From: Oscillospiraceae bacterium
GTDB taxonomy: Bacteria; Bacillota; Clostridia; Oscillospirales; Ruminococcaceae
Assembly (NCBI GenBank): GCA_015067125.1
Contig: SVNB01000001.1
Span: 1-58,982, forward strand
Length of the DNA stretch: 58,982 nt
Reading direction: 5' to 3'
The notes below the pieces were generated by a model. The model worked only from the letters and a program-made list of their open reading frames with translations, ran no database searches and was not told the DNA's origin. The position numbers and the translations under genes are program-made. Below are positions 13,748 through 37,724 of this stretch, piece after piece. Each line of letters starts with the position of its first letter. Within the stretch, counting starts at the first letter, position 1.

Positions 13748-13936
13748 TCAGATCCTCACCTTTGCGGCAAAGCCGCCGCAGAAAAAGAAGGTGTTCATCC
13801 AATACTTTTCCGGCAGAGGCAACCCACCATTACAAAGTATTACGAAAAAATCCATATGAATATCGTGCTCAAAATGAGCACGGCACCCGGAATAGCGACT
13901 ACAGCACTTGAGCACCATAATCACTTTACCCGTCAT
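13748..13936 (-). pseudogene. Possible degenerate or truncated DUF523-like fragment (62-aa ORF)
   Basis: CSRYSG and CNGGLPLPE resemble the CRYDG and GGLPTPRVPAE motifs of the intact DUF523 gene at 49693..50124, with similar spacing. The 14-mer TGCTCAAAAAGGAG occurs upstream of both. The ORF is far shorter than the 143-aa paralog and has a poor RBS. Confidence 0.25.
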
Positions 13937-13991
13937 TCCCCTGCGAAAAAGATGCTCGGTTCTTGCTCCTTTTTGAGCAATTCTGTCTTAC

Positions 13992-14022
13992 AAAAAAATC
14001 CGGCAAATTACGCCGGATTTTT
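13992..14022 (-). terminator. Terminator of the pilus operon
   Basis: ATCCGGC-loop-GCCGGAT hairpin flanked by an A-run and a T-run. On the minus strand it is followed by TTTTTTT, about 60 nt after the sortase stop. Confidence 0.7.
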
Positions 14023-14082
14023 GATTTTCTGTATTTTGTTTGTGAACAACGGTCTGAATATCAGCTTTTTGCGTTTACATTG

Positions 14083-16481: not shown

Positions 16482-16565
16482 TGCAGCCCTCTCCTTGCCG
16501 CACAGCCGCCTATTTCAGGCGGCTGTGCGGTTCTTTTAAATGTGTAATAATATTACTGAATAATT

Positions 16566-18026: not shown

Positions 18027-18091
18027 TTTTACACTTTCCTTTCTTTTGATTGAATTTATTTCCGAAATTTTTAAAACTGTTTTGTTGCGCT

Positions 18092-21000
18092 TCAGGAGGT
18101 ATCCTCCTTTCTTCGCTTTTTGTTTATTCTGTATATCAAAGCGGCGCTTGCTCCAATGGCAAAGATTCCGCCGATGATACCGGGAATAATTCCTCCTCCG
18201 CCGGTTCGCGGAAGTTCGTAATGAAGCCGATATACGTTTGTAACGGTTACCTCGTATTGATTTCCGGTAAGAGTTTTTTCGCCGTATTCGGTTTTCCAGT
18301 CTTCGGAGAAGAAAACCTCTTCAACGGAATAATCTATTTCTTCCCCTCCACTGTCCGTTTTAGGAAGATCGGTAAATGTATATGTCCAGCCATTTTTAAG
18401 GTTCAGCTGGGCGCTCATTCCGGAATCCTTTCCGTTTTCAAGAAGCTTCATTGTTACAACAAACTGTTCATAAACCTTTTCGGTTGCAAAGCCCTGGGTA
18501 TCCCAAGCTTTGTTCACCTTAAAGGAAACGCTGTTATCAACGGTAATCGGTTCGTTTGTAATAAGGAAGCCTTTTCCGTCAAGTTCGATTGTTTCATTGG
18601 TGGTCGTCCGCACTTCTTCATAAAGATCGAAACTCAAAGCGTTTTTGGAATTGTTGTTCGTTGTTCCGTTTCCATCAGAAATTCCGGCGAAGTAATAACC
18701 GCTGTGGCTAAGCCTTTCGTTTGAAAAAGCAAGAGCGGTATTGCTTCCGGGATCGTCGTCCGCCCGGAACTGTCTTGTGGTGTTCCACCAGTTGGAAGAA
18801 TAAGTATAATAATAAAGCTTCTGTCCAAGTTCGTTGGTAAAAGAATAGTTTGAACCGTTTTCTTTGGTTATTACCCACCTTGTTCCGGCAGAACTTTTTG
18901 CCGCGGCTTCGTCTGTTTCCCAAGAAAGCTCGTCGTTTTCGGCTTTAAGATACCCGCTTTCGGTTTTGAGGAGATAGGTTTTCTCGCTTGTTATGGAAGT
19001 TGTCTTTTCCCAGGTAATTTCCGTTTTTTCGATGGTGGATTCGGTAATTTCTGTTATCGTTCCGAAATATCCGGAAACCGTTCCTTCCTCAACGGTATAA
19101 ACAACCTCTTTTTCGCTTTCGCCTTTAAGCGGAAGGTTCTTCCATGTATGAGTCCAATCGTTGGCTTCGTTGAGAACCGCTTCCTGGATTCGGAAACCGT
19201 TTGCAAGGATATAGACCGTTACGGAATCTTTTGAATGGTCAATGTTGTCGTCCCATTGTTTCTTTACCAGAACGGAAGTGACTTCGTCGCCGTAATCCTG
19301 TTTTGCGTTTGTTGCAACAAGGTTTACTTCGTGGTTTTCAACGTCTATTTTATATCCGTGAACAGTGAAACCGCCGGAAAGATCGCTTCCTTCCGCATTT
19401 TCATCCGGAATAACGTCAAAGGTTGCCGTTCCCTGGCTGTTGATCTTCATAACGATAATTCCGTTTGCAACGCCGTAACCGCCGTTTGTGGGATACTTTG
19501 TTTCTTTTATATAGTAAGTGTTGCCTGCCGCAAGACCCCAGAAAGACGTATATCCGTTTTCAACAACAAATTCGCTTTGCGAAGGATTTCCTGCTTCATA
19601 ATCTGCGTGGCTTTTCCAAAGGTTTACTTTATTTGTACAAGCTTTGTCGCTGAAAACCGTAAATTCCGCTCCGTTAAGAAGATCCCTTGTAAGAACGTCT
19701 TCTTTCTGGAGTTTAAGTCCGTACCGGGTGCTTATGTTGAATTTTACCTTGCAGTTTGAAGCGGATGCGCCTCGCTCAAGATAATACATTGTAAGAGTAT
19801 GCTCGCCTGCTCCAATAGATTTTGGAAGAGCGGACGTACTGCCGTTTACCGTAACAACTCCGGTGGAAAAGTTTATGGAACCTTTAAGCGCATCATGGAT
19901 GCCGCCGATATCGAGAACAAGAATATCGTCAACATATACCCAGACGTCATCGTCACCGGTAAAATCGAAAACAAGCTCTTCTCCGTTTACTCCTCTGTTC
20001 ACCGTGTTTCCGTCGGAATCCTTTTCTCCCGGATTGTTCGGAAGATAGAACCTGATATCTGTCTGGATTCCGAACCAATATTCCGCATTTACCCCGGAAC
20101 CTCCGAGATACTGATAATGGGTTGTCCCGTTATATTCTCCGTACTGACCGTTGTTGCTATATGTTCCGACCGGTCTTCCGTTTGTGTTTACATAAGGAGA
20201 GTTCAGCGGAAGGAAGTCAGCCGTGCTTGAATCCACCGCGCGTTCAAGGTAATCATAAACATAGAATCTTTGTGCGCTTTGATTATAGGAAGCGGCATGA
20301 TAGAGCGAATCGTAATAATAGTATCCGTAATATTCGGTGTTAGCCGGGTCATCGCAATACTGGAACAGGTGGTCGCCGGTTCCAAGATAGGTTTTTCCGA
20401 TAATTCCGGTTCCGGTTGCCGGATTAAAGGAATTTCCTGTTCCGAAAAGGCGGTCAATGATTTCATCATCGAGAAGATTTGCGTTTGTATTGCCGCCGGT
20501 ATATTTATTATCGCCGTTATCCGAATTGCTCGGATAAGAAAGTTTTCCGCCGCTCCAGTCGCGGAAAATAAGGTTTCCGGCACCTTTGTCCGTCGAAATA
20601 ATCGACCAGGTTTCGCTGTGACCGGAAGCGTTTACCGTAACGTTTGCTTTCGCATAAGGTATATTGAAGAACGGACTGTAATCAAAAACTTTTGTGGTAA
20701 TAAAATCGTTGGTGCTTACCGTTTGGGAAACGGCAGCGTTAAACTGACCGATATCATAAGTTGCCGGAACCCAGTCCGCATAAAAGACCATGCTTGCTTC
20801 CGGATTTATTTCTTCGCCTGCAGGATAATATTTTCCGCTTACCACGTCATACCAGCCCTGCACCCTGTAATTATATCTGTCCGGAGTTTTCCAGCTTTCC
20901 GGAAGGATGAATTTTTCGCCTTTCAAAATAGCATATCCGGTGTTGTCGGAACCGGAAAGGTAATCCATTCCGCCGTTTGTTCCGTCAACCCAGATATAAA

Positions 21001-23287
21001 TTTCATCCGATGTATCGTAAATTCCAAAGTTATAAACAGCCGCCTGGTTCTGGTCCTGGGTAACCTTAAAAATTTCGTTCTCCTTATCAAGATAGGCATA
21101 TTCGCTGTTGCTTCGGATTTTTATTCCTCCGTTTGCGTCAACGATAACGCTTGTATAGGCACCGCTTGTGGTAACGCCGCTTCCGTTATTCGGATACGCG
21201 TGCATATATCTTCCGGAAGAGGCATTTTTTATAATATATGTATTCGTATCTCTTTTTGTAAAGCTCCAGAGAAGTTCGTTTCTGCTGCCCACATCCGCGG
21301 TTATTGTTCCGTCCGATGAAATATTTATCGGAACGGCATTTCCGGAACCATCAAATGCATAATAACCGTTCTGACCTTTTGTATATACAACAAAAAGCGC
21401 TGTATCCGTAAACATATTCTGGTTATAGGAAACGGTTTTTCCGATTTCCGTTTCAACAAGAACTGCCATAGACCAGATATATTCAAGTTCCATCAGCTTT
21501 TCGCTGTTGGTAACAAATTTTCTGTGGTTTTCCGGAAGATCCGTATAGTATTTGTAAGCCATTCCAACCTGCTGATAAATTTCCGTAAGCCAGGCTTCTT
21601 CGCCTTCATAATCTTCCGCTTCTTCAAATTCCATGATTTTTGCGTCGATTTCGTCCGCCGTCGGAAGGGCATCTATCATGAAAATAACGGTTTCGATTCT
21701 TAATCTTTCTTCCTCCGGAAGATCTTCAAATCCAAGCTTGCATTCTTCGGTATGAGCATGTTCTTCTATTCCGCAAATCGCTTCGCCGTTTTCATTGAAG
21801 CATTCATCTGTATGTGCGTGCTCATCTATTCCGCAGAAATATTCCGGTTCGGTTTTTTCGTTAAGACATTCTTCGGTATGAGCATGTTCTTCGGCTTCGC
21901 AGATTAAGTTTCCGCCTTCGTCATAGCATTCTTCGATATGCGCATGCTCAGTCATTCCGCAGAAATATTCCGGTTCTGTTTTTTCGTTAAGACATTCTTC
22001 AGTATGAGCATGTTCCTCGGCTTCGCAGATTAAGTTTCCGCCTTCGTCATAGCATTCTTCGGCGTGTGCGTGCTCATCAATTCCGCAGAAATATTCCGGC
22101 GCGGTTTCTTCAGTTTTTTCTTCAAGGCAGCTTTCGCTGTGTATATGTTCTTCAAAGCCGCAGATAAGATTTCCGTTTTCATCAAAGCAGTTATCGTGGA
22201 TATGTTCTTCCAATCCGCAGTGATATGGCGACGGAATCGCTATTGCCGCAAAACCAAAAATCGTTTCGTCCGCTTTTCCATAAGGAACAGCCTGTACGCT
22301 TTCACCGTAATCGCCTATTACCGTTTTATAACTGTCCTCGGTAATTTCGATTATGATTCCCGCTCTGTCCGGTTTTCCGTTTCTGTCTTCATCAAAGAAA
22401 ATCAAATCTCCGGCAAGAGCTTCGTGCTCACCAAAATGTTTGTAAATATCGGTTCCCGGTGATGAAAGAAGCTCGATCCATTTTTCAACATCCGCATCAA
22501 ACGGAATTTCCGCCTTTGCGTATTCAAGACAGAAACCGGCGAAAAGAATGTTCCAGTCCGCATAGGGTTCTTCGAACCATTCGCCGTAACGGGTGCGGCC
22601 TTTTATTGTTTCTCCGTCCTCAAGGACTATATAGTTTTTTGTGCTTTCGTGATAGCCAAGCTGGCTTTTTGCTATCGTTATAAGATTTTCGGAAACAACC
22701 TCGCCTAAATCTGCGGAAGCGAAGCTTGCGCTCCACTGTTCTTCGGTTTCAATATCCGCGTTATTATCAGAATAACATGCAAGGCTGTGGCTGTGTTCCA
22801 AAAGTTCGCAGGAAACGGTTTTTATTTCATAACATTCATCGCCGTGGCTGTGGCCTTCTGTTTCCAAAATTTCGCAGATGAGTGAGGTTTCATAGCATTC
22901 CTCGGAATGGATATGCTCTTCTTCTTTTTCGCAGATAAGCTGCTCCTCGGAATAGCACTCTTCGGAATGAAGGTGGTTTTCTTCTGTTTCGCAGATAAGA
23001 ACTTTTTCAAAACACTGTTCGGAATGGAAATGCGCTTCCTCTTCCGGAAGTTCACAAAGAAGAACCTTTTCTTCTGCCGCAAGGCAGCTTTCGGAATGGG
23101 TATGTTCTTCTGTTCCGCAGAAAGTTTCCCTTTCCTGTGTGATTGCAGGAAGGATGAGCGCATAGGTTGTGCAGAAAACCACCGCAGCGGAAAGTACCGA
23201 AAGAATTTTTAGCCAGATTTTTTTGCGGCTGTTCTTCTTCGCATATTTTTTCATTCTTTGTTCAAGATTGCTTTCCAAAACGCGCAC
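18092..23287 (-). CDS. 1,731-aa LPXTG-type pilus tip adhesin candidate
   Basis: 14 Cys-His modules, a CHAP/NlpC-P60-like segment, a fibro-slime/PA14-like domain (FDFTGDDDVWVYVDDILVLDIGGIHD) and SpaA/Cna-B domains (YYIKETKYPTNGGY; VLVKKQWDD...VYTVEEGTVSGY). Ends in LPRTGGG, a TM segment and KKRRK. The track start is a GTG abutting GGAGG; the in-frame TTG at 23278 (9-nt spacing) is a likelier start. Confidence 0.8.
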   Translation of the reverse strand: MRVLESNLEQRMKKYAKKNSRKKIWLKILSVLSAAVVFCTTYALILPAITQERETFCGTEEHTHSESCLAAEEKVLLCELPEEEAHFHSEQCFEKVLICETEENHLHSEECYSEEQLICEKEEEHIHSEECYETSLICEILETEGHSHGDECYEIKTVSCELLEHSHSLACYSDNNADIETEEQWSASFASADLGEVVSENLITIAKSQLGYHESTKNYIVLEDGETIKGRTRYGEWFEEPYADWNILFAGFCLEYAKAEIPFDADVEKWIELLSSPGTDIYKHFGEHEALAGDLIFFDEDRNGKPDRAGIIIEITEDSYKTVIGDYGESVQAVPYGKADETIFGFAAIAIPSPYHCGLEEHIHDNCFDENGNLICGFEEHIHSESCLEEKTEETAPEYFCGIDEHAHAEECYDEGGNLICEAEEHAHTEECLNEKTEPEYFCGMTEHAHIEECYDEGGNLICEAEEHAHTEECLNEKTEPEYFCGIDEHAHTDECFNENGEAICGIEEHAHTEECKLGFEDLPEEERLRIETVIFMIDALPTADEIDAKIMEFEEAEDYEGEEAWLTEIYQQVGMAYKYYTDLPENHRKFVTNSEKLMELEYIWSMAVLVETEIGKTVSYNQNMFTDTALFVVYTKGQNGYYAFDGSGNAVPINISSDGTITADVGSRNELLWSFTKRDTNTYIIKNASSGRYMHAYPNNGSGVTTSGAYTSVIVDANGGIKIRSNSEYAYLDKENEIFKVTQDQNQAAVYNFGIYDTSDEIYIWVDGTNGGMDYLSGSDNTGYAILKGEKFILPESWKTPDRYNYRVQGWYDVVSGKYYPAGEEINPEASMVFYADWVPATYDIGQFNAAVSQTVSTNDFITTKVFDYSPFFNIPYAKANVTVNASGHSETWSIISTDKGAGNLIFRDWSGGKLSYPSNSDNGDNKYTGGNTNANLLDDEIIDRLFGTGNSFNPATGTGIIGKTYLGTGDHLFQYCDDPANTEYYGYYYYDSLYHAASYNQSAQRFYVYDYLERAVDSSTADFLPLNSPYVNTNGRPVGTYSNNGQYGEYNGTTHYQYLGGSGVNAEYWFGIQTDIRFYLPNNPGEKDSDGNTVNRGVNGEELVFDFTGDDDVWVYVDDILVLDIGGIHDALKGSINFSTGVVTVNGSTSALPKSIGAGEHTLTMYYLERGASASNCKVKFNISTRYGLKLQKEDVLTRDLLNGAEFTVFSDKACTNKVNLWKSHADYEAGNPSQSEFVVENGYTSFWGLAAGNTYYIKETKYPTNGGYGVANGIIVMKINSQGTATFDVIPDENAEGSDLSGGFTVHGYKIDVENHEVNLVATNAKQDYGDEVTSVLVKKQWDDNIDHSKDSVTVYILANGFRIQEAVLNEANDWTHTWKNLPLKGESEKEVVYTVEEGTVSGYFGTITEITESTIEKTEITWEKTTSITSEKTYLLKTESGYLKAENDELSWETDEAAAKSSAGTRWVITKENGSNYSFTNELGQKLYYYTYSSNWWNTTRQFRADDDPGSNTALAFSNERLSHSGYYFAGISDGNGTTNNNSKNALSFDLYEEVRTTTNETIELDGKGFLITNEPITVDNSVSFKVNKAWDTQGFATEKVYEQFVVTMKLLENGKDSGMSAQLNLKNGWTYTFTDLPKTDSGGEEIDYSVEEVFFSEDWKTEYGEKTLTGNQYEVTVTNVYRLHYELPRTGGGGIIPGIIGGIFAIGASAALIYRINKKRRKEDTS
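21831..22082 (-). repeat. Two near-identical 126-nt (42-codon) tandem units inside the tip adhesin gene
   Basis: Units start at 21831 and 21957. By eye there are 3 differences in the first 100 nt or so and about 11 overall. More diverged copies flank them (next unit starts at 22083). Each unit encodes two C-x-x-x-EH-x-H-x-E-E-C modules. Confidence 0.85.
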
Positions 23288-23319
23288 CCTCCTTCCTTTT
23301 TTATTTTAATTTTTTGCCG

Positions 23320-23904
23320 TTATTCAATAATTCCAAAATCAGAAACCGGCCAGACCCGGAAAACAATTTTTCCGACAATCTGCTCTTCCGGAATACAGCC
23401 CACAACGGAAACACGGCTGTCAACCGAAGTTTCCCGATGGTCGCCCATCAAAAAATATTTCGAATCCGGAACCTGGTAAGGATATTCAATATCACATTCC
23501 CCAAAAGATTTTTCGCTTACATAAGGTTCATAAAGTTCCGTTCCATTTACAAAAACCGTTCCGTTTTCGTCAATAAGAACATAATCCGACGGGCAGGCTA
23601 TTATTCTTTTTACAAGAAGTTTGTTGCCGATATAAAACGCAACAAGATCTCCCTGTTCAAAATTTTTTCCTTTTACCGAAACAACGATCTGTCCTTCATC
23701 AATAGTGGGCGTCATGGACGAACCGTAAATCTGAAGAACCGGCATCCATAAAGTTGCCACAAGAACAGCAAAAGCCGCAACTACAACAAGAGTATAAACT
23801 GTACTTTTGAAAACATTTATATATCTTCGTTTGTACTTTACTCTGTTAAGTTCGGCTTTCAGTTCATCAATTTCGGGCATTTGTTTTTTTGCCTTTATTC
23901 TCAT
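23320..23904 (-). CDS. Signal peptidase I (S26) encoded immediately upstream of the tip adhesin
   Basis: TM anchor, GSSMTPTI (Ser box), LVKRIIACPSD (Lys box), GDHRETSVDSR. The catalytic dyad appears intact. Confidence 0.85.
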   Translation of the reverse strand: MRIKAKKQMPEIDELKAELNRVKYKRRYINVFKSTVYTLVVVAAFAVLVATLWMPVLQIYGSSMTPTIDEGQIVVSVKGKNFEQGDLVAFYIGNKLLVKRIIACPSDYVLIDENGTVFVNGTELYEPYVSEKSFGECDIEYPYQVPDSKYFLMGDHRETSVDSRVSVVGCIPEEQIVGKIVFRVWPVSDFGIIE

Positions 23905-24407
23905 TTTTCGTCCTGATCCTTTTTGAGGTAAGCCATTGACAGAAGTTCGCGAAGACCGGCATGTTCGCTATAAAATTTATCAAGTCGTTTGGAAACATCG
24001 TCCCAATATGCTTTGGATTCTTTTTCCGCTTTGGAAACAATCAAATCCGCTTTTGCTCTGGCTTCCGCTTCAATTGCGGCGCTGCGGCTTTGAGCTTCTG
24101 CAACCTGGCGTTCGCATTTTTCCCGGGTTTCTCTTTCTTTTATCCTGGCAAGAGCATCCTGTCTTTCGCTCAGTTTTTTTACGCTTTCAACATATTGAAT
24201 GCTTGCAGCCTGGGCCGCTTCAAAAACACCGTTTATCGCAAGGGCGGCTTCGGCAATTGAACCCGCTTCCGAAAGGATTATTTCTCTTTCTTTAAGTTCT
24301 GCCTTTGCTTTTTCAAGTTCGGCTTTAAGCTTTTCCATTTCTTCGCTCTGTTCGATAAGCATCTGGAGCAAATCGGTTCTTGAAAGCTTTTTCATTTCTT
24401 TTTCAGT
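23901..24407 (-). CDS. Coiled-coil protein of unknown function, translationally coupled (ATGA) to the signal peptidase gene
   Basis: ORF 23901..24467. AAGGAG lies 9 nt before the in-frame TTG at 24407; an ATG (MKKLSRTDLL) follows at 24395. Heptad-rich, A/E/K-rich sequence. Confidence 0.6.
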   Translation of the reverse strand, partial: TEKEMKKLSRTDLLQMLIEQSEEMEKLKAELEKAKAELKEREIILSEAGSIAEAALAINGVFEAAQAASIQYVESVKKLSERQDALARIKERETREKCERQVAEAQSRSAAIEAEARAKADLIVSKAEKESKAYWDDVSKRLDKFYSEHAGLRELLSMAYLKKDQDEK

Positions 24408-24487
24408 CAAGCGGCTCAACTCCTTATAATAAAAAAACACCATTAACTGAAAATAGCGCAAGAGCACTACATAAAGATAATAGTATT

Positions 24488-25078: not shown

Positions 25079-25428
25079 TGGTGGAGGCGAGGGGAGTCGA
25101 ACCCCTGTCCGAAAGTCCGTCCACACAAACTTCTCCGGGTGCAGAATGTTGTTTAAGCTTCCCGAATAAACCAGACAGCAGTCAAACCGGTCTGTTCGGT
25201 ATTTTCCTGTTACGGCGGCGGTACGGAAAAAGCTCCCGCCTGTCGTTCACCGCTGATCGACGCCCTTACCAAAGCCGCGGTACTCTTTGGCAGAACGGCT
25301 GCTTAATTAAGCAGCAAAAGCAAATCTGTTAGATTTAGCGTTTATTGTTTTTACCCGTTTTATAGATGGCCGGGCGCATCTACCCGCTATTCATGCTTCA
25401 AAACCCCCGTCGAAACCTTTACGCCCCC
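25079..25428 (-). ncRNA. ssrA: tmRNA
   Basis: Minus strand starts GGGGGCGTAAAGGTTTCGACGGGGGTT and ends GGACAGGGGTTCGACTCCCCTCGCCTCCACCA, a tRNA-Ala-like acceptor/T-arm with CCA. The internal tag frame ends ...AAA TCT AAC AGA TTT GCT TTT GCT GCT TAA (…KSNRFAFAA). It lies next to smpB. Confidence 0.95.
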
Positions 25429-28860: not shown

Positions 28861-29010
28861 CGCGGATGTGCACTTTATCATACGGCATACAGATTTGTCT
28901 GCGGCACCCAAAAAGACCGCTTAATGCTGCTCGGTTCCCCGCCTGACATGGTTCACAGTTTTTTGTCGCACAGGACCCGTATACCGCATGGCAAAGCGCA
29001 TATCCGCGCC
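28861..29010 (-). ncRNA. ffs: Signal recognition particle RNA (short form, about 150 nt)
   Basis: Minus strand contains CTGTGAACCATGTCAGGCGGGGAACCGAGCAGCATTAAGCGG, a domain IV GUCAGG...AGCAGC core. The ends form a 13-bp closing helix (CGCGGATATGCGC with GTGCACATCCGCG, one mismatch) followed by TTTTTT. It sits directly upstream of dnaX, as ffs does in other Bacillota. Confidence 0.85.
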
Positions 29011-31127: not shown

Positions 31128-31156
31128 TTGACATTGCCCAAACGTTCTGATATAAT
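31128..31156 (+). promoter_or_regulatory. Consensus sigma-70 promoter of tRNA-Leu
   Basis: TTGACA (31128-31133), 17-nt spacer, TATAAT (31151-31156), about 20 nt before the tRNA 5' end. Confidence 0.75.
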
Positions 31157-31176: not shown

Positions 31177-31260
31177 GCGGTAGTGCTGGAATAGGCAGAC
31201 AGGCACGTTTGAGGGGCGTGTGTCTTTGACGTATGGGTTCAAGTCCCATTTACCGCACCA
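31177..31260 (+). tRNA. tRNA-Leu (anticodon GAG), class II with long variable arm, encoded CCA
   Basis: Acceptor GCGGTAG/TTACCGC. Anticodon stem CACGT/GCGTG with loop TTGAGGG (GAG at positions 34-36). Long variable arm. T-arm GGGTTCAAGTCCC. 3' ACCA. Confidence 0.85.
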
Positions 31261-31261
31261 A
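31238..31261 (+). repeat. attL core (tRNA-Leu 3' end)
   Basis: Identical 24-mer to 37123-37146. Confidence 0.85.
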
Positions 31262-31262
31262 G

Positions 31263-31316
31263 ATTAAGGACTGATAAGCGGCTTAAATAAGCCGTTTGTT
31301 AGTCCTTAATTTTTTA
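31263..31316 (+). terminator. Long hairpin terminator supplied by the island for tRNA-Leu
   Basis: ATTAAGGACT...AGTCCTTAAT outer stem with inner AAGCGGCTTA/TAAGCCGTTT pairing, followed by TTTTTT. Confidence 0.65.
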
Positions 31317-31329
31317 TATAATTTTGTTT

Positions 31330-31356
31330 TTGCTAACAAATTGCTAACAAATATCT
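31330..31356 (+). repeat. Two tandem TTGCTAACAAA motifs (candidate integrase arm-type sites, attL side)
   Basis: TTGCTAACAAATTGCTAACAAATATCT. The same GCTAACAA...GCTAACAAATATCT block recurs at 36985-37027 in the same orientation. Confidence 0.5.
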
Positions 31357-31525
31357 TAGATGGTGCATTTTCGTTTTCATTTTTATAAGATTTTTATAAT
31401 TTTTTAACAAAAACACTTGACAAGTATGATATAATTAAGGTGCTAAAAAATTAATTGTTGCGTATAATAAAATAGGTGTGTTAATTAAAGGGTTGTGGAA
31501 ATACATTGAAAAGGAGTGTTTTATT

Positions 31526-31696
31526 ATGGCAACAAGTAGCATCACAAAGCAAATCGTTATTTCCAAAAAACACAAAGCACAAAAATTTGTTGACGCTCTG
31601 ACAAAGGCTCAATATCGCAAAGTAAAAGAAGTTACATTAAAAAAACCTTGTAATGATATTAAAGCTGAAGATATTGAAAAGTTTTTTGGAGCATAA
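31526..31696 (+). CDS. 56-aa lysine-rich protein, candidate antitoxin/partner of the downstream GNAT-like protein
   Basis: AAGGAG RBS 8 nt before ATG 31526. The stop lies 2 nt before the next start codon. MATSSITKQIVISKKHKAQKFVDALTKAQYRKVKEV... I do not recognise a family. Confidence 0.55.
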   Translation: MATSSITKQIVISKKHKAQKFVDALTKAQYRKVKEVTLKKPCNDIKAEDIEKFFGA

Positions 31697-31698
31697 TT

Positions 31699-32304
31699 AT
31701 GACAGAATATAGCCAAATTAAATTAATCGATCTATTAGAAAAGAAGGGAGAACCTTTTGTAAAGGAAATGCTCTCTTCTTTTTCTTGTCCTCTAAATCAA
31801 GATATAGAAGATTATTTACGTAGAAAAGCAGTTATTATGGCGCAAAAAAATATTTCTCCTACATATCTTATCTTTACAACGCAGTTAGGAAAACCAGTAT
31901 TAATAGGATACTACACCATTGCCTTAAAAACATTAACTATCCGCTGTGGAAAAATCACAAGGCGGCAAAGAGATAAAATAAAACGTTTCGGATCATATGA
32001 TGAAAATCAAAACGCTTATCAAATCCCTGCTTACCTTATCGCACAACTTGGTAAAAATTTTTCAAATGGCTATAACAAACTCATTACTGGTGATGAACTT
32101 TTAAAAATGGCCTGTGATAGGGTTAAAGAGAGCCAAAATCTTGTCGGTGGAAAAGTTGTTTACCTTGAATGTGAGGACAAGCCCCGACTTATTACTTTTT
32201 ATAGACGCAACGGATTTACCGAATTTGATAAAAGAGAAATAGAAGAAAAAGAAAAACGTATTTTCAAATCTGATTATCTTATACAAATGTTGAAACTTTT
32301 GTAA
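31699..32304 (+). CDS. GNAT-fold protein resembling TacT/AtaT/KacT-type acetyltransferase toxins
   Basis: N-terminal F-x-C-x...DIEDYLRRKA, TYLIF...VLIGYYTIAL, IPAYLIAQLGKN and C-terminal VYLECEDKPRLITFYRRNGFTEF match, by eye, the layout of GNAT toxins (F-x-C-G..L..FL...A; TYV; GyytLs; PA.LLgRLAVd; FY...GF). Confidence 0.55.
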   Translation: MTEYSQIKLIDLLEKKGEPFVKEMLSSFSCPLNQDIEDYLRRKAVIMAQKNISPTYLIFTTQLGKPVLIGYYTIALKTLTIRCGKITRRQRDKIKRFGSYDENQNAYQIPAYLIAQLGKNFSNGYNKLITGDELLKMACDRVKESQNLVGGKVVYLECEDKPRLITFYRRNGFTEFDKREIEEKEKRIFKSDYLIQMLKLL

Positions 32305-32321
32305 TTCTATATTATATAAAA

Positions 32322-32342
32322 AGCGCCGGGTTTTCCGGCGCT
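32322..32342. terminator. Bidirectional terminator between the GNAT-like gene and the integrase gene
   Basis: AGCGCCGG-GTTTT-CCGGCGCT with an A-run before and a T-run after. Confidence 0.7.
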
Positions 32343-32347
32343 CTTTT

Positions 32348-33568
32348 TTATGCCCTTTTTGCGGTTGCAATATCAATTCCTATAACGTCAGAAAGCGCCT
32401 GAGCGGCTCTTGCTTGCTGTTCTGCTATGGAATGGGCGTATATATCCATTGTGGTGTTTATGTTGCTGTGTCCGAGGGAAGAAGAAACGGTTTTTATATC
32501 CGTACCGTTTGCAATAAGCTGTGTAGCGTTAAAATGTCTGAAGCTGTGGAATTTTATATACCTAAATCCAGTACGTTTGCAGAAACGAATCCACCAGTTT
32601 TCTATATTATTGGGGTTTTCCGGGAATCCCTCTTTATTTATAAAAAGCCTGTCCCCTGCTTGCCAATGCGCACCCATCATAAAACGTGTTTCAATTAGCC
32701 AACGGTGATAATCTTTTAAAACTTGCATAACGTTATCAGCTACTTTTATGCAACGTTTTGATTTTTCGGTTTTCGGTTCGTCCGTGTATGTACCCCTCTT
32801 AGCCGTGTGTAGGCTCGTTCTGCTTATTGTTATAGTGTTGTTACGAAAATCTATGTCCGGCCACTCAAGCCCGTATATCTCGCCTCTGCGCATACCGCAG
32901 TATATCGCAAGTATAAAAACCATTCTACGGTTAAAGGGTTCATCCTGCAAAAGATCCAAAAGTTTTTGAACTTCCGCAAGGGAATAAACTTCAACTTCTT
33001 TGTTTTTCTTCGAGGGAAGTACAACGCCTTTACACGGGTTTGTATAAACAATCCCTTGCATTACTGCATATTTAAAAACAGAGCTGACATACGCAAAATA
33101 ATTATAAACGGTCTTTGCACTCAAATTTTTATGTTTTTTCTTTCCCGTTTTCGGGTCAATTTCTTTGCGTTTTGACATTCCGTCCTCGCAAAGATTATTT
33201 ATAAAACTTTGTATGTCCGTTGTTCTAATATCGCAAATCGGTTTATATCCAAAGGCTTTATTTGCTACCGGTTCATAACTTTTATATGTGTTAATAGTCC
33301 AGCTTTTAAGTCTTTTCGGCGCATAGTCAATAAAGTATTTTGCCGCAACCTCTTGAAACTTTGCACTGCTTGTGGCTGCGGTTCCGTTTATGCAGGCATC
33401 TTCAAACTTACGGGCGAACTCTTCTGCGGCTTTGTTATTCTGTTTTTCCGTCTTTGTGGGGTCATACTTAAAGCTTTTACTTTTCATTATTTGTTTACCC
33501 TCAAGGGTGCGACCTACGCACACCTGGATTCTATAACTCCCGCTCTTGTTCCTTGTTATAGATGCCAT
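32348..33568 (-). CDS. Tyrosine-type site-specific integrase
   Basis: N-terminal SAM-like/arm-binding region (SGSYRIQVCVGR...). C-terminal catalytic signature RRGEIYGLEW..., HSFRHFNAT, LGHSNINTTMDIYAH. Confidence 0.9.
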   Translation of the reverse strand: MASITRNKSGSYRIQVCVGRTLEGKQIMKSKSFKYDPTKTEKQNNKAAEEFARKFEDACINGTAATSSAKFQEVAAKYFIDYAPKRLKSWTINTYKSYEPVANKAFGYKPICDIRTTDIQSFINNLCEDGMSKRKEIDPKTGKKKHKNLSAKTVYNYFAYVSSVFKYAVMQGIVYTNPCKGVVLPSKKNKEVEVYSLAEVQKLLDLLQDEPFNRRMVFILAIYCGMRRGEIYGLEWPDIDFRNNTITISRTSLHTAKRGTYTDEPKTEKSKRCIKVADNVMQVLKDYHRWLIETRFMMGAHWQAGDRLFINKEGFPENPNNIENWWIRFCKRTGFRYIKFHSFRHFNATQLIANGTDIKTVSSSLGHSNINTTMDIYAHSIAEQQARAAQALSDVIGIDIATAKRA

Positions 33569-33580
33569 TTAAAAGCCTCC

Positions 33581-34243
33581 TTATTTTTTCGCTTTTCCCA
33601 TAAGCTCCTCAGCTATATGTGTTGTTAAACGTTGAGTTTCAAAAAATAACAACTCTTTTTCAAAAATTTCCGAATCCTCAGAAATCTTTTTATTTTTATC
33701 GCAATACATACAACGGTTTAATATATTTAACAATTTATAAAACTCATTTGATTCGATCAAAGCGTTTAAAGCTGTTTTGTCGAGGTAATCTCCCCAACTT
33801 TCAAAATCGGGTTGCATTTCTATTTCTTTATTGCTTTGATAGTCGTTTTCGTCGAACGCATCCCACTCTTTACCCAGTTTTTCATATTCAGCTATTTTTT
33901 CAGCTCTTGCCACATCGGCGGAGCTTCTTTTTTTTATAATTTTTTCAACTGCATTTTCAGAAAGCCCGGTATTTTCGCATATGTCCGCTGTTACGTGATG
34001 CTTTGTATCGTATTCGCAAAGCAAATAACCAATATCGCAATTAAAAATGATGCAAAGTTTAAACAAAAAATTCAAATCAAAACCGCTTATATCCGCTTTA
34101 CCGTTCTCTATTGCTGATAATTTATTTCTGCCAATATAAACGCCTTCTTTTTTCAGTCGCTCCATTAAATCATCTTGTGACATTTTTTGTTCCTTGCGTT
34201 CTTTTTGTAAACGCTTGCCGATTTTATCAAAATCGTATTTCAT
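33581..34243 (-). CDS. cI-like XRE-family repressor with extended C-terminal domain
   Basis: Start placed at MKYDFDKIGKRLQKERKEQKMSQDDLMERL (HTH). Directly upstream of, and co-directional with, the integrase. Divergent from the xis-side genes. Confidence 0.75.
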   Translation of the reverse strand: MKYDFDKIGKRLQKERKEQKMSQDDLMERLKKEGVYIGRNKLSAIENGKADISGFDLNFLFKLCIIFNCDIGYLLCEYDTKHHVTADICENTGLSENAVEKIIKKRSSADVARAEKIAEYEKLGKEWDAFDENDYQSNKEIEMQPDFESWGDYLDKTALNALIESNEFYKLLNILNRCMYCDKNKKISEDSEIFEKELLFFETQRLTTHIAEELMGKAKK

Positions 34244-34516
34244 TTTAAGCAACTTCTTTCCTTGTAATTTTACACTGTGTAAATACTGGTTATTTTCAAG
34301 ATACATTTTATCGTAATATAATGTAAATGTCAATAAAATTAAATGTCCGAAAAATCATTTGACACACGGTTTTTAATAATGTTTAAAGAAGATATTTTTA
34401 ACTTTAAGTATATTTAAACTCAACAGAAATTAACCTAACATAAAAATTTTTTACGGTTAATTTTTGCCGATTTATTTTATACCTATTTTCGAGCAAACAA
34501 AAAGGAGGTGCAACAA

Positions 34517-34666
34517 ATGGAACTTTCCAAGGAAGAAAAAGCCGCAAGAGCGGAATATTACCGCAAATGGAGAGTGAAAAATCCGGAAAAAGTTCAGGCC
34601 GCTTTTAAAAAATACTGGCTCAAAAAAGCGGACGAGATGAAAGCGGAAGAAAGAAAGGAGGAATAA
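34517..34666 (+). CDS. 49-aa basic protein (MELSKEEKAAREYYRKWRVKNPEKV...), first gene of the rightward island operon
   Basis: Not in the ORF track (under 60 aa). AAAGGAGG RBS 8 nt before ATG 34517. The stop lies 3 nt before the next start codon. Confidence 0.55.
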   Translation: MELSKEEKAARAEYYRKWRVKNPEKVQAAFKKYWLKKADEMKAEERKEE

Positions 34667-34669
34667 CAA

Positions 34670-34903
34670 ATGGGACGTTTCAGATATTGCCGTGATGTTG
34701 TTGCGGAGGTCAGACGCATTGATCCTAATTCAAAACTAACCGAGCGGGCTTTGAGGGAATGGATTGCAAGCGGAATATTACCCGCTCTTGGAAGCGGTAA
34801 CCGCAGGCTAATTGATCTTGATGTGGTACTTGATATTTTGAAAGAACCACACATTATTTCGCAGGAAAAAGATCAATTCCCCAAAATCCGACAAATTGGA
34901 TAA
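34670..34903 (+). CDS. Excisionase-like (MerR-type HTH) DNA-binding protein
   Basis: AGGAGGA RBS. LTERALREWIASGILPALGSGNRRLIDLDVV resembles Xis/AlpA-type HTH proteins. Confidence 0.55.
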   Translation: MGRFRYCRDVVAEVRRIDPNSKLTERALREWIASGILPALGSGNRRLIDLDVVLDILKEPHIISQEKDQFPKIRQIG

Positions 34904-34920
34904 TAAACGAAGGAGTACAA

Positions 34921-35286
34921 GTGAGTAAAAAGAAATATAAAGCAGCTCCACACTGCAAAATTAATTCGTGGCTTTCCGCAAATGACAACTGCGTAGAGGT
35001 AAGTTTTATACAAGTTGGCGGTTCTTTGCTCAAAAGCCCTATATTTAACAGTCTTGCATACTCTACACGCTATATTTATCTTTGCTGTGCTTCTGAAGCT
35101 GCAGGTAAAACAACTTTTAATTTTCCTGCTTCTTTTTTCAAAATATATGGATTTTCAGAATCTACCGGGCAAAGAGCGTTGTTTGAGTTAGCCCAAAACG
35201 GTTTTATAAAGCTTACTTTTTCGGGGAAGGTTAACCGTTTGCCGAATGAATATCAGTTTAACTATGAATGGAAAGGACGTGCCTAA
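34921..35286 (+). CDS. Hypothetical winged-helix-like protein (possible replication/initiation factor)
   Basis: GTG start with GAAGGAG RBS. FSESTGQRALFELAQNGFIKL looks like a winged-helix recognition segment. No confident family assignment. Confidence 0.45.
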   Translation: MSKKKYKAAPHCKINSWLSANDNCVEVSFIQVGGSLLKSPIFNSLAYSTRYIYLCCASEAAGKTTFNFPASFFKIYGFSESTGQRALFELAQNGFIKLTFSGKVNRLPNEYQFNYEWKGRA

Positions 35287-35317
35287 ACGAACTTTTAAAG
35301 AGAATAGGGGTGAAGTA

Positions 35318-35533
35318 ATGGCTTTTAAACTTATCAACCATATTGCCGAACTTAGTCACGGCGTAACTTATACACTCAACCTTTCAATGGTTGAAATGGA
35401 CGGCAAAGGTCCATATATAAATATTGGAAAATGGCACGAAAACACACATAAACGTTTTTCCGGCAATCTCACACTTGACGAGGCCAAAGCCCTTTACAAA
35501 GCTCTTGGTGATATGCTAAACGAAAATAAATAA
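35318..35533 (+). CDS. YdbC/PC4-like small DNA-binding protein
   Basis: ATG at 35318 (MAFKLINHIAELSHG...LNLSMVEMDGKGPYINIGKWHE...LTLDEAKALYKALGDML). The pattern resembles B. subtilis YdbC-type PC4-fold proteins. Confidence 0.45.
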   Translation: MAFKLINHIAELSHGVTYTLNLSMVEMDGKGPYINIGKWHENTHKRFSGNLTLDEAKALYKALGDMLNENK

Positions 35534-35539
35534 CAAAAA

Positions 35540-35571
35540 CCGTCGGGGGGGATTTTCCTCCGGCGGTTTTT
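35540..35571 (+). terminator. Terminator of the rightward island operon
   Basis: CCGTCGGGGG-GGATTTT-CCTCCGGCGG (two G-T wobbles) followed by TTTTT. Confidence 0.7.
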
Positions 35572-36169
35572 CTATCAGAAAGGTTTATAAAACGAAATGC
35601 GGCTTAACCCTATATTTTATTTTTTTGGTTTATTTCGTTTTTTATATTACACCACTTTCTGACGCTTTCATCAAACAGCCGTGCTCAAAATCGCTTTCTT
35701 GTTTTGCGCCGTGCTCACGTTTAAAGGCTCTGTGACAAGCCTTTTGTTTCATCCTATAATTTACCACTTTTACCATAAAAATACTTCATAAGCTTTTTAA
35801 AACCCTTTGGAGCGTATTTACATTGAACAACGCCCGCTCAACAACTCTTTTAGCGTAATCTTTTCTAAGGTTTTACGGTTATTTATTACTTTCGCAAAAA
35901 ATACGCACGCAAGAGAGTTTGTTTTTATTTTTGCTAACTTCCCGGAAATATTTTCGTTATTTTAAACTCCCCCACCTGGTATAAATATATAGTGTTATTC
36001 AATTTGATATAGTACCCACGAACGAAAACAAGCCATTTTTCGAACTTTGCTTACTTCAAAATGAAGTAGTGTACCCTGTTTTTTACCATTATTTGGTAGC
36101 GTAGCATTCAAAAAGAAGTAAGTACGTGTATCAAAATGAAGTAGCCATTTTATTTTTTAAATAGGAATA

Positions 36170-36328
36170 TCAAATCGTATGTTTTGCTTCTTTGCGTTTT
36201 TTCAAGTAAGCAATAAACTCTCTTTTGGATTCATCAGAAAGGGAATCGTATATTTCAAAAAAATCCTCATAAAACTTTTCTTTGTTGTTTTTGTATTCGT
36301 CCATAAGTATCTCGGTTGTAAAATTCAT
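36170..36328 (-). CDS. 52-aa acidic hypothetical protein, the only RBS-supported ORF in the ORF-poor segment
   Basis: Not in the ORF track. AGGAGG lies 8 nt before ATG 36328. Translation: MNFTTEILMDEYKNNKEKFYEDFFEIYDSLSDESKREFIAYLKKRKEAKHTI. Confidence 0.45.
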   Translation of the reverse strand: MNFTTEILMDEYKNNKEKFYEDFFEIYDSLSDESKREFIAYLKKRKEAKHTI

Positions 36329-36984
36329 TTTTCTTTTCCTCCTGGTGTTGATATATTTTTATTTAGAAATTAGGCGGAGCCTAACATCTGACTTTTTGGA
36401 AGAGCTGTATGCCCTTTGGTTTTACTTTTTTGCTTTTCTATCTGCAAAGTACGGGGGTATGTTTATCAATATAATGCTGATCCCGTTCCTTACTGTTTAC
36501 CATACGTTTAAAAACAATAGATATTTACCAATTGTTAATTACTTTCCCGCATAATTTAAATAACTGTTGAACGTCACCAACGGTTATATACACTTATATG
36601 GAGCGGGGTTTGCTCATAAACTGGTTAAGCTCGTTTGGTTCTTGTCTTTGCCTTTGGCCGTGCTTCGCTTATGTTAATACCTATATACCTTTATCGTTTG
36701 CATATGGTTATGTTTGTATCTTTATCTTTATTAGTGTTATACCCTTGCTGTTCTTGTATAGGTATGTTGCTATTGCTATCTTATGTTATGGCCTCTGCCG
36801 TGGTCGTACTTGCCTGTAAGCTGCGCCGGTGCTATAATATATATGGGTGCAATAGTTACCCGCTCACCTTTTGGTGTCTGCTCCTGGCCTTGTATTGTGC
36901 CTGTGGGCTGCGCCGTGTCACGTCATATATAATGATGTTCCCTCTTCATTATCATTGTTAAAAGTTTGTTTATCGTTCGGAAAA

Positions 36985-37027
36985 TTAGCTAACAACTTGC
37001 TAACAAATATCTCATTTGCTAACAAAC
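36985..37027 (+). repeat. Three GCTAACAA motifs (candidate arm-type sites, attR side)
   Basis: TTAGCTAACAACTTGCTAACAAATATCTCATTTGCTAACAAAC. Same orientation as the pair at 31330-31356. Confidence 0.5.
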
Positions 37028-37122
37028 AATATAGCACGATAACGATTTTTAATCAACGGAAAATGGCTTAATAATCGCATAAAATGCCCTCGGCAAAACT
37101 ACCAAATTTTCTAAAAATGCAA

Positions 37123-37146
37123 TTCAAGTCCCATTTACCGCACCAA
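37123..37146 (+). repeat. attR core (displaced copy of the tRNA-Leu 3' end)
   Basis: Identical 24-mer to 31238-31261. Confidence 0.85.
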
Positions 37147-37149
37147 AAA

Positions 37150-37182
37150 AGCAGGGAGCAAATTTTGTTCCCTGCTTTTTTT
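37150..37182 (+). terminator. Hairpin terminator immediately after attR
   Basis: AGCAGGGA-loop-TCCCTGCT followed by TTTTTTT. Confidence 0.6.
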
Positions 37183-37327
37183 GATTTTATAATATGCGGA
37201 GTTGCGACCCATCAAAAACGGGGTCCCCAAAAAATCCAAAAGATTTTTTGGGGAGAGGAGCGGCAGCAAAGCGTCTTCGAAATTTTATTTTTAATAAAAC
37301 TCCGATCAGCGAAGCTTGCCGCGACGA

Positions 37328-37349
37328 AAGTCCCATTTACCGCACCAAG
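37328..37349 (+). repeat. Third, shorter copy of the tRNA-Leu 3' end
   Basis: AAGTCCCATTTACCGCACCAAG (22 nt) matches the tRNA end including the first flanking G of copy 1. It is followed by its own hairpin, CGTTAAC-TTTT-GTTAACG, plus a T-run. Confidence 0.75.
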
Positions 37350-37412
37350 GTCGTTAACTTTTGTTAACGGCCTTTTTTCTTTATCAAAACAAAAATCAGG
37401 GAGGCAACACTT

Positions 37413-37724
37413 ATGGAAAAATTTATCCCTTACGAAAAACTTTCCAAAAAACAAAAGCGCGAACTTAACGCAAAAAAGCGCCGCGGCTGGAACGGCCTTA
37501 ACCCCGTAACCAGAAAACCCCAGAACCCGAAAGCATATAACAGAAAAAAGGCACAGCATCAAAACGATTTTGATACTGTGCCTTTGTTTTTTTCAGATAT
37601 TATCTCTGGCCGTAGCTGTTGCGAACAAAATCCTGCATATAGGCAATTTTGTCGTCATCAATGGTTTTCGGGGTGCCGATGCATCTTGCCATGTAATAGA
37701 TCTGAGAAGTCATTTCCAGAATAG
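37413..37724 (+). CDS. Small basic protein (MEKFIPYEKLSKKQKRELNAKKRRGWNGLNPVTRKP...) with an apparent C-terminal extension
   Basis: GGGAGG RBS. From memory, the N-terminal 55 aa or so resemble a short conserved hypothetical protein common in Clostridia. The reading frame continues 125 nt into the convergent aldolase gene. Confidence 0.5.
   Translation: MEKFIPYEKLSKKQKRELNAKKRRGWNGLNPVTRKPQNPKAYNRKKAQHQNDFDTVPLFFSDIISGRSCCEQNPAYRQFCRHQWFSGCRCILPCNRSEKSFPE

Follow-up and report, generated by a model that had tools for sequence, protein, structure and literature searches.

The phage-inducible chromosomal islands (PICIs) are built around a core of an integrase, a regulator, a primase-replicase, capsid-morphogenesis functions and the small-terminase gene terS, and have a median length of 9.5 kb (PMC10085698). 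The PICMIs of Vibrionaceae (phage-inducible chromosomal minimalist islands) are satellites that measure about 6 kb, contain large non-coding regions and lack packaging genes; they are packaged as concatemers, and they are defined by a DUF3987/DUF5906 primase and by integration next to fis (PMC10803314). The island considered here lies in the 3′ end of a tRNA-Leu(GAG) gene on a 58,982-bp stretch of DNA from an uncultured Oscillospiraceae bacterium of the ruminant gut (positions 1 to 58,982 of contig SVNB01000001.1, assembly GCA_015067125.1; this whole 59-kb stretch is called the window below), and its unit length, taken as the spacing of the 24-nt direct repeats that bound it, is 5,885 bp. We read it, with a probability of about one half, as an active, minimal, replicative and helper-dependent island that resembles phage satellites and has no small terminase, a phage route of transfer being the best supported one.

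The order of genes (integrase and repressor on one side, xis and DNA-binding genes on the other; Table 1) matches the left half of PICI-type satellites, and the PICI-like layout proposed in a preliminary description of this DNA can be maintained. Like the PICIs of the SaPI type (SaPI: Staphylococcus aureus pathogenicity island), the island has a tyrosine integrase, a repressor that is co-directional with int and has no self-cleavage under the SOS response, a divergent operon headed by a small regulator and xis, with a putative replication module and origin behind them, and accessory or defence genes at one end, while genes for structural proteins or lysis are lacking. Unlike them, it is about half the size and seems to rely for replication on a stand-alone 121-aa winged-helix protein of putative origin-binding type in place of a primase-replicase. 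Two of the five core components are present (the integrase, and a regulation module, in PICIs a homolog of alpA, merR or stl, which here consists of the XRE-type repressor candidate with its HTH_3 domain and the HTH_17 protein of the MerR superfamily), arguably three if function is counted, and searches of Pfam, PHROGs and NCBIfam detected no primase-replicase, terS or capsid-morphogenesis gene; the PICI model of SatelliteFinder would not call the island, because at most two to three of the five components can be credited to it. The same three collections bear out the initial statement that capsid, terminase, relaxase and primase genes are absent, and show no primase or helicase domain in any island open reading frame (ORF). 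The likeness to PICMIs is a close one of life-style and layout: about 6 kb, few genes, an integrase, a putative AlpA/HTH_17-type protein, one putative replication gene, large stretches of non-coding DNA in which small ORFs lie, neither packaging nor capsid genes, and a circular or concatemeric form. For the AlpA-type protein of PICMIs (PF05930 or PF12728) the island has a candidate whose PF12728 score, 21.4 bits, falls below the cut-off of 27 bits, and the homologs in relatives have recorded HTH_17 domains. PICMIs also protect their host against other phages, as the island may do as well. Unlike PICMIs, the island has no DUF3987/DUF5906 primase, sits in tRNA-Leu and not next to fis, adds a cI-type repressor, and lives in a Gram-positive gut anaerobe and not in a marine Vibrio. 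Among the PICIs the comparison applies above all to cos-type SaPIs that do without terS, such as SaPIbov5, reportedly described by Quiles-Puchalt et al. in 2014.

Table 1. Features of the island and its boundaries (positions in the window; aa, amino acids; HTH, helix-turn-helix; AF2, AlphaFold; pLDDT, predicted local distance difference test)
Feature	Position	Strand	Evidence or remark
tRNA-Leu(GAG), integration target	31177-31260	+	ARAGORN; Rfam tRNA 42 bits
attL core, 24 nt	31238-31261	+	exact repeat; same in every occupied copy
Intrinsic terminator of the tRNA, island-supplied	31263-31310	+	20-bp stem and T-run, directly 3′ of the tRNA
Left attP arm repeats, two copies of TTGCTAACAA(A), putative integrase arm-binding sites	31329-31351	+	
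Cargo gene 1, 56-aa protein, tightly coupled upstream partner	31526-31696	+	phrog_3291 6.6e-13; dN/dS well below 1
Cargo gene 2, 201-aa N-acetyltransferase-like protein	31699-32304	+	phrog_1758 'acetyltransferase' 1.6e-45
GC-rich hairpin terminator between convergent cargo and int	32322-32342	+	
Tyrosine integrase, 406 aa	32348-33568	-	Pfam Phage_integrase PF00589 2.1e-28; phrog_1 9.5e-75
XRE/cI-type HTH repressor candidate, ORF of 250 aa	33581-34333	-	HTH_3 1.2e-7; phrog_8, phrog_3
Divergent promoter/operator region	34334-34507	.	31-nt inverted repeat 34405-34435 / 34455-34485
49-aa basic protein (49 or 52 aa by start), first gene of the rightward operon	34517-34666 (34508 with the long start)	+	phrog_14214 5.6e-11
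77-aa HTH_17 (Xis/AlpA-like) protein	34670-34903	+	PF12728 E 3e-4, 21.4 bits; TIGR01764 excisionase E 0.043
121-aa winged-helix protein, putative origin-binding/replication-initiator domain	34921-35286	+	AF2 model pLDDT 91
Deletion scar	35291-35316	.	~530 bp including a 185-aa gene missing relative to L004, L022, L082
71-aa PC4/YdbC-like protein, putative single-stranded-DNA binder	35318-35533	+	PDB 3pm7 full-length but weak, E 0.34
Iteron-like cluster, three copies of TCAAAATGAAGTAG, putative origin	36056-36144	+	only matches (<=2 mismatches) in the 59-kb window
52-aa acidic protein	36170-36328	-	AGGAGG ribosome-binding site before ATG; no family match (Pfam, PHROGs, PADLOC, NCBIfam)
Highly constrained non-coding block, 332 bp	36329-36660	.	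97.9-99.1% identity in all variants
Right attP arm; three repeats of the arm type (T[TA]GCTAACAA) lie at 36986-37025	36987-37122	+	
attR core, 24 nt	37123-37146	+	exact repeat of the attL core

The boundaries of the island are sharp. The repeat TTCAAGTCCCATTTACCGCACCAA (24 nt), which had been noticed at the outset as an exact copy of the tRNA-Leu 3′ end, occurs exactly twice in the window, none being expected from shuffled sequences, and the 3′ end of the tRNA gene is rebuilt from island-derived sequence. GC content is 0.27-0.42 within the island against 0.45-0.50 in its flanks. A perfect sigma-70-type promoter stands 5′ of the tRNA (31128-31156), and the terminator that the island had been said to supply to it is indeed found directly downstream and is kept in four other copies (L004, L032, L072 and L082). 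The 10-mer TTGCTAACAA has four exact copies in the window, all in one orientation, two of them inside attL and two inside attR, where a copy with one mismatch joins the exact ones; the right attP arm (the 136 bp before attR) is 99.3-100% identical across all variants.

Empty and occupied sites were sought in public assemblies through the flanking aldolase protein. This look-up gave nine contigs in which the aldolase gene and a penicillin-binding-protein gene lie about 670 bp apart, and one occupied contig. In four of the nine (L001, L002, L003 and L005), aligned base by base, an intact tRNA gene is fused straight to what corresponds to window position 37147 onward, which is the empty tRNA-Leu site to be expected in relatives from the preliminary description, and five further contigs, compared by gene order and not base by base, have the same empty arrangement. 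By these alignments the island is shown to be a precise, polymorphic insertion. A third, partial att copy (21/24) with a terminator of its own lies at 37325-37348 and occurs in empty-site genomes too. The order to the right of attR is a 178-bp segment with its own terminator (37145-37181), then the 21/24 att copy, then the ancestral tRNA terminator (37347-37374). As judged from the compared sites, 37147-37348 is what an earlier integration into this tRNA gene left behind, a scar fixed in this species and outside the present island, because the four aligned empty sites include the third att copy together with the preceding 178 bp, and because in two other host species (L032 and L072) attR of the island directly adjoins the flank of that third copy.

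One genome per species was scanned for the island in other hosts. A second species, the metagenome-assembled genome (MAG) Oscillospiraceae bacterium RGIG8954 from water deer rectum (L032), carries it at the same tRNA, with flanks 73-90% identical to those of the window and a backbone 95-100% identical; the segment that matches window positions 32343-37148 reaches 98.3%. A third host background (L072) has flanks of 75-93% and a backbone of 95-98%, and a fourth (L023/L085) flanks of 78-85%. Across these three the tRNA is the same and the backbone (int, the XRE gene and the right-hand non-coding end) is 95-100% identical while the flanks reach only 73-93%, and recent movement of the island between species is shown by this discrepancy. 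One further contig (L073, JGI 3300031555) is identical to the window across 16 kb (100%). The genes that travelled are shown, from the substitutions between variants, to be under purifying selection: the ratio of nonsynonymous to synonymous rates (dN/dS) is 0-0.3 for all nine island genes, with 0.02-0.09 for the integrase, 0-0.2 for the repressor candidate and likewise for the 49-aa and Xis-like genes (0.06-0.15 for the 49-aa gene taken singly), ~0.02 for the winged-helix gene (identity down to 79% between variants), ~0.04 for the acetyltransferase-like and PC4-like genes, and 0-0.3 for the 52-aa gene, where dS rises to 0.53.

The excised form is represented by a metagenome contig of 6,544 bp (L082), which was found through a 97% homolog of the cargo acetyltransferase. 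Its ends overlap exactly over 141 nt, a length equal to the assembler k-mer size, and it has a single att site, at which the right end of the island is joined via the 24-nt core to its left end, with one base different just after the core. This is an attP junction, and it provides the circular or tandem junction expected of a mobile element; an excised circular or concatemeric (tandem) form is thereby shown to exist, as far as an assembled contig can tell. Two more similar contigs of 5-10 kb were counted among the matches. The exact attP-junction pattern has no match in IMG/VR; its absence from metagenome_contigs is uninformative, since a control 22-mer that is present in the window and in L073 also gave zero there. 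With direct repeats that duplicate the target, an empty site and an attP junction, the locus has what characterizes a site-specific integrative element in general. All variants found measure 5.4-7.6 kb and share the same ends, none has structural genes, and the undeleted form of the element is 6.4 kb against 5.9 kb in the window.

The initial assignment of a tyrosine integrase, a co-directional cI-like repressor and a cargo module on the attL side holds on ORF, Pfam and PHROG evidence, and five island proteins match phage protein families in PHROGs at E < 1e-9. The catalytic residues of the integrase (R...HxxR...H...Y) can be read in its sequence. The repressor candidate has an N-terminal HTH domain only, with neither an S24 peptidase domain nor an ImmA-like partner. 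Its true start is probably the ATG at 34243, giving a protein of 220 aa, because a strong promoter (TTGACA-17-TAAAAT, 34333-34305) sits within the 5′ end of the long annotated ORF; in another copy (L022) a different HTH protein, of 181 aa, takes the repressor position. The divergent promoter/operator region is 96-100% identical between variants. The rightward operon runs from the 49-aa gene, in a cro-like position and with a homolog at the same position in a distant 5.9-kb island (L029), through the genes for the 77-aa Xis-like and 121-aa winged-helix proteins to that for the 71-aa PC4-like protein. The operon order first described is correct; the PC4-like gene, however, is not the 95-aa ORF that overlaps the 121-aa gene but the 71-aa gene, which is followed by a terminator hairpin (35535-35571) and whose product also has a match to phrog_26484 'DNA binding protein' (E 0.1). 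The 77-aa protein is 42-47% identical to the 70-aa, HTH_17-annotated proteins that always precede the winged-helix gene in relatives, and its match to the terS-related phrog_57 is at the level of the HTH only (E 0.004).

Between the winged-helix and PC4-like genes a 185-aa gene is present in L004 (10090-10647), L022 and L082; its version in L072 is 213 aa long, and the homolog in L031 171 aa. One and the same deletion of ~530 bp is found in the window, in L032 and L073 and in several further contigs, the alignment of L032 being continuous across the junction, and L023/L085 have a separate deletion of ~1 kb in the same region. On this comparison the gene is not needed for transfer, because the deleted form is 98% identical in two species. 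The 185-aa protein belongs to no Pfam, PADLOC or NCBIfam family and has only three weak PHROG matches (E 0.02-0.07). The idea that it is one half of a split replisome organizer is unsupported, no similarity to the longer winged-helix family members having been found.

The 121-aa protein has only three close homologs among 5.8 billion proteins, and a full HMMER pass over 1.84 billion proteins returned 407 representative clusters of its family, mostly of ~120 aa; no relatives were found in IMG/VR, and the family alignments are too variable for a pattern-based search of loci. The AlphaFold model, built from 82 sequences of which 18 match HTH_36, was compared with viral models (BFVD), where it agrees best (E 1e-4 to 1e-3) with the N-terminal portions of 190-350-aa phage proteins that bear names such as replication initiator, replisome organizer, lambda GpO N-terminal, RepA-like and RepL. 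In the PDB the best full-length coverage was obtained with the N-terminal domain of RepA_N (5kbj, TMq 0.55), and a profile of the protein matches RepA_N and DnaD weakly (E 0.04-0.7). Some family members of ~220-280 aa (P0004, P0005, P0007-P0009) are tandem duplications of the 120-aa winged-helix domain. Iteron-type replicons (RepA_N plasmids and organizers of the lambda O or DnaD-like type) share with the island a winged-helix fold and short direct repeats nearby; unlike them, the island has the DNA-binding domain only (~120 aa), with no C-terminal domain to recruit a helicase loader.

A role of the winged helix in replication is supported because its slot is exchangeable, because distant relatives have iterons and because the repeats track the gene. 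In L072 the slot holds a DUF6291 protein and a DnaC-like helicase loader (phrog_50, 1.2e-32), and in L011 a primase-helicase with a DnaG zinc ribbon and an AAA_25 domain. The TCAAAATGAAGTAG repeats are conserved in L004, and the segment that contains them (35933-36147) is missing from L072, which also has no winged-helix gene. Beside the winged-helix gene of L029 there are four 22-nt iterons spaced 33-45 bp, and beside that of L031 three 15-nt iterons spaced 42-45 bp. The island is thus probably replicative, with the 121-aa protein modelled as a putative origin binder. The claim that it would depend entirely on a helper was too strong as far as replication goes, in view of the initiator-like winged helix, the exchangeable replication slot and the iteron-like cluster.

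The right end had at first been called a noncoding segment. It in fact holds the 52-aa gene, which is under purifying selection, and is otherwise non-coding as stated, with the iteron-like cluster and the most conserved DNA of the whole element, namely 36329-36660 and the attR arm. The 332-bp block 36329-36660, in which neither an ORF nor an Rfam match nor a significant RNA fold nor any similarity to other DNA was found, is read as a candidate cis-acting DNA site (pac/cos, oriT, that is, an origin of transfer, or regulatory). Rfam searched at E up to 1 gave nothing credible in the island besides the tRNA at its edge, and a structured RNA in 36329-37000 was rejected, fold z-scores being only -1.0 to -1.6 on both strands, and -1.3 to -1.6 for the block itself. 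Comparison of 35534-37122 with all unrelated fetched loci (blastn and tblastx) gave no match and no hidden pseudogene, and two 26-27-mers of the block had no exact match in IMG/VR. The block contains hairpins at 36371-36385 and 36560-36587. Elsewhere in the non-coding region, an 18-nt direct repeat (TGCCTGTRRGCTGCGCCG) occurs at 36811-36828 and 36898-36915, at a spacing of 87 bp, each copy being followed by a TATAAT-like AT-rich box, in a less conserved part; GCCGTGCTCA has two copies (35678 and 35708), neither of which is lost in L072.

These observations can be assembled into a possible life cycle. The integrase would recombine the 24-nt core shared with the 3′ end of tRNA-Leu(GAG), guided by the TTGCTAACAA arm sites and helped by the Xis-like HTH_17 protein, and the XRE-type repressor without a self-cleavage domain would hold the divergent operon off. 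Upon derepression the element would excise and replicate from the iteron-type origin bound by the 121-aa winged helix, through replication proteins of the host or of a helper, with the PC4-like single-stranded-DNA binder assisting. As the element has no packaging or conjugation genes, circles or concatemers would leave the cell in borrowed particles, most likely the capsids of a helper phage, as for the terS-less cos-type SaPIs and the PICMIs, and the invariant non-coding block near attR may serve as the cis site for packaging. The slot between int and attL would hold exchangeable cargo that benefits the host, an acetyltransferase-like pair in this copy and SoFic in the sister copy. That the island would need a helper to pass from cell to cell can reasonably be deduced; the repressor logic, the origin function, the helper dependence and the phage route are what we infer in this scheme. 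Going further, one may tentatively regard the family as the first minimal phage satellites (~6 kb, without terS or primase) from Gram-positive gut and rumen anaerobes, widespread (407 winged-helix clusters), equipped with a stand-alone origin binder that resembles the N-terminal part of lambda O, packaged via the invariant non-coding site and moving SoFic-type defence across Oscillospiraceae species, a proposal that is possible and on balance doubtful.

Several points weigh against the reading of the island as an active, replicative satellite. Neither a helper nor virion-derived reads nor any cos/pac homology came to light: the attP junction and two 26-27-mers of the block lack an exact match in IMG/VR, and blastn against GenBank phages and PLSDB plasmids matches nothing besides the acetyltransferase gene and the tRNA. 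The assignment of the winged helix is a structure-level similarity (E ~1e-4), the regulators CodY and MarR also match in the PDB, and a winged helix is in many proteins simply that of a transcription factor. The tie of the iterons to the winged-helix gene comes from a single variant (L072), and there are only three repeats, at irregular spacings of 52 and 23 bp. The Xis-like protein matches HTH_17 below the Pfam cut-off (21.4 against 27 bits), the L082 contig could equally derive from a tandem chromosomal array, and both the window and the transferred L032 copy are without the 185-aa gene, which is either dispensable or has left these copies crippled for replication.

The best-surviving alternative, an unlikely one that has to be reckoned with, is that of a replicative element without a dedicated helper, units or concatemers of which are taken up by non-specific carriers, such as generalized transduction, gene transfer agents (GTAs), vesicles or transformation. 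Carriage of this kind is the mechanism proposed for elements like the tycheposons, which, with the virion-encapsidated elements of marine bacteria, are small tRNA-targeting islands with a tyrosine recombinase, replication genes and variable cargo that use outside vehicles; their hosts and gene families differ from those of the island. It would agree with the existence of a circular or concatemeric form, with a size of 5.9-6.4 kb that would fit small particles, and with the lack of pac/cos similarity to any phage in GenBank or IMG/VR; when the entire island was compared with GenBank phages by blastn in distant mode, nothing matched except the acetyltransferase gene (C. difficile phages, 68%) and the tRNA. 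It would, however, leave unexplained the near-invariance of 332 bp of non-coding DNA beside diverging genes, and the presence of terS in relatives points to specific packaging in the lineage; the repressor, having no self-cleavage domain, hints at a specific inducer from outside. In favour of the alternative, Oscillospiraceae are also reported as prominent both in the bacterial DNA carried by virus-like particles (VLPs) and as GTA producers (bioRxiv 10.64898/2026.07.08.737213).

Next in standing, and also improbable, is a mobilizable island that rides on conjugation, in the manner of mobilizable genomic islands (MGIs) or of integrative and mobilizable elements (IMEs) with an oriT only: after excision, the relaxase of a co-resident integrative and conjugative element (ICE) or plasmid would nick an oriT hidden in the conserved block, DNA would be transferred as a single strand, and the PC4-like binder and the replication module would serve its re-synthesis in the recipient. 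The island shares with such elements its own int and xis, integration at an att site, cargo, the lack of conjugation machinery or other transfer genes and a transfer that would depend on a helper, the invariant 332-bp block with its hairpins could be an oriT, and conjugation, with its broad reach, would be in keeping with one backbone in several host species; ICEs are moreover on record from VLP fractions and from more than one genus of the Oscillospiraceae (bioRxiv 10.64898/2026.07.08.737213). Unlike IMEs, however, the island has no relaxase (no family match in Pfam or NCBIfam), no coupling protein and no recognisable oriT, and its regulatory and replication genes are of phage type. The gene pool as a whole is phage-like (PHROG matches, the DnaC-like loader, the replisome-organizer-like winged helix, relatives with terS or a primase-helicase), blastn of the whole island against 72,556 plasmids (PLSDB) matched only the cargo acetyltransferase gene and the tRNA, and the window contains no ICE. 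The related suggestion of a cis-mobilizable element (CIME), made in the preliminary description, is abandoned, as a CIME is an att-flanked element without recombination genes of its own and the integrase here is intact and under purifying selection.

That the island is a decayed, immobile remnant of a larger prophage or ICE, kept for its cargo, would suit its gene-poor right half, the independent deletions (~530 bp in the window, L032 and L073; ~1 kb in L023/L085) and the 178-bp relic of an older insertion that adjoins attR, but this is highly improbable and largely refuted, as the search gave no larger relative that has structural or transfer genes (copies of 5.4-7.6 kb have the same ends, and distant relatives measure 5.9-9 kb), no virion structural, terminase or lysis gene occurs in the island, the deleted form itself crossed species (98% in L032, flanks 73-90%), the attP junction is present on a contig, every gene has a dN/dS well below 1 and conservation of the att arms is 99-100%. 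The initial view of a discrete island has therefore withstood both objections foreseen for it, that the segment might be fixed in all relatives or be the decayed end of a larger prophage. The reading as an active, helper-dependent and phage-satellite-like island is the one kept in what follows.

The cargo slot varies between copies. The window, L004, L073, L082 and L085 have the 56-aa/201-aa pair, L032 has a 413-aa unknown protein with a 388-aa SoFic (PADLOC 2.7e-127; Fic_N and Fic domains), SoFic being a published anti-phage system, and L072 has nothing; exchange of both cargo and replication modules between copies is shown by these comparisons. The 201-aa protein has no match in Pfam, PADLOC or NCBIfam, and its family numbers more than 2,200 homologs of ~202 aa in Clostridia, under the NCBI name 'N-acetyltransferase'. 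The pair of a small gene and an acetyltransferase gene corresponds to ORF74/ORF75 of the C. difficile phage phiCD119, and the pair may have a toxin-antitoxin or phage-exclusion role. PADLOC found no known defence system in the cargo of the window itself.

In the wider family the winged-helix homolog is always preceded by a ~70-aa HTH_17 gene and stands beside an integrase gene and an XRE or DUF6076 gene. Distant relatives are bounded by tRNA repeats of their own and measure 5.9-9 kb: L029 (5.9 kb) lies in tRNA-Cys with a 25-nt repeat and carries a ParE-type toxin-antitoxin, L031 (8.7 kb) in tRNA-Val with a 34-nt repeat and carries HicAB and Ltp, and L011 is a 9-kb island in tRNA-Pro whose integrase and Xis-like protein are 41% and 38% identical to those of the window. 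The island is one of a widespread and so far nameless group of small islands that target tRNA genes in gut Clostridia. The island of L024/L025 has a homologous repressor (39%), a homologous Xis-like protein (33%), a DUF6291 protein and a Terminase_2 small terminase, and by its gene content it ties the lineage to PICI-type satellites. In L024/L025 (1-8600) and L026-L028 two small islands stand in tandem beside tRNA-Thr and rpsF-ssb-rpsR. The first reads Int-XRE / HTH_17-DUF6291-...-Terminase_2-sigma70_r2, with Uma2/RHH cargo, and the second Int-DUF6076 / HTH_17-winged helix, its integrase being shortened in the tandem layout (306 vs 478 aa). Integrases of ~40% identity lie beside tRNA-Leu(GAG) in an IMG/VR contig (L012, tRNA at 6704-6788) and in a Clostridia MAG (L039, 2104-2188), where no att repeat occurs within the fetched DNA and the elements may be larger or cut off.

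The rest of the window offers no obvious partner for the island: a helper within its 59 kb was rejected, the left part being a two-component system and a sortase-pilus locus, with no prophage or ICE. The two-component system, of the LytTR type, lies at 11687-13674, and the pilus locus, within 11687-24467 and 25079-25428, encodes Cna_B/SpaA proteins of 325, 486 and 1,731 aa, a sortase and a signal peptidase, beside a transfer-messenger RNA gene (tag AKSNRFAFAA); a signal recognition particle RNA is at 28884-28982. To the right of the island, a small and very basic ORF with a good ribosome-binding site (MEKFIPYEKLSKKQKRELNAKKRRGWNGLNPVTRKPQNPKAYNRKKAQ...) at 37413-37600 is conserved in the empty-site contigs and belongs to no family, and as mechanically called it reads on through a bidirectional terminator at 37547-37585.

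Integrase islands without transfer genes make up a large and poorly explained share of bacterial genomic islands, and the present one has been caught in four states: absent from its site, inserted at it in several species, as an excised or concatemeric form, and with its cargo and replication modules exchanged. The family, which has at most three of the five PICI core components and no primase, would escape current satellite finders, and for a hijacking site the invariant 332-bp non-coding block offers itself as a candidate. Should the helper be a phage, the minimalist satellites known from marine Vibrio would be extended to Gram-positive anaerobes, and a new replication module for satellites would be defined. 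The island is a concrete model for the movement of defence genes among uncultured Oscillospiraceae of the rumen and gut.

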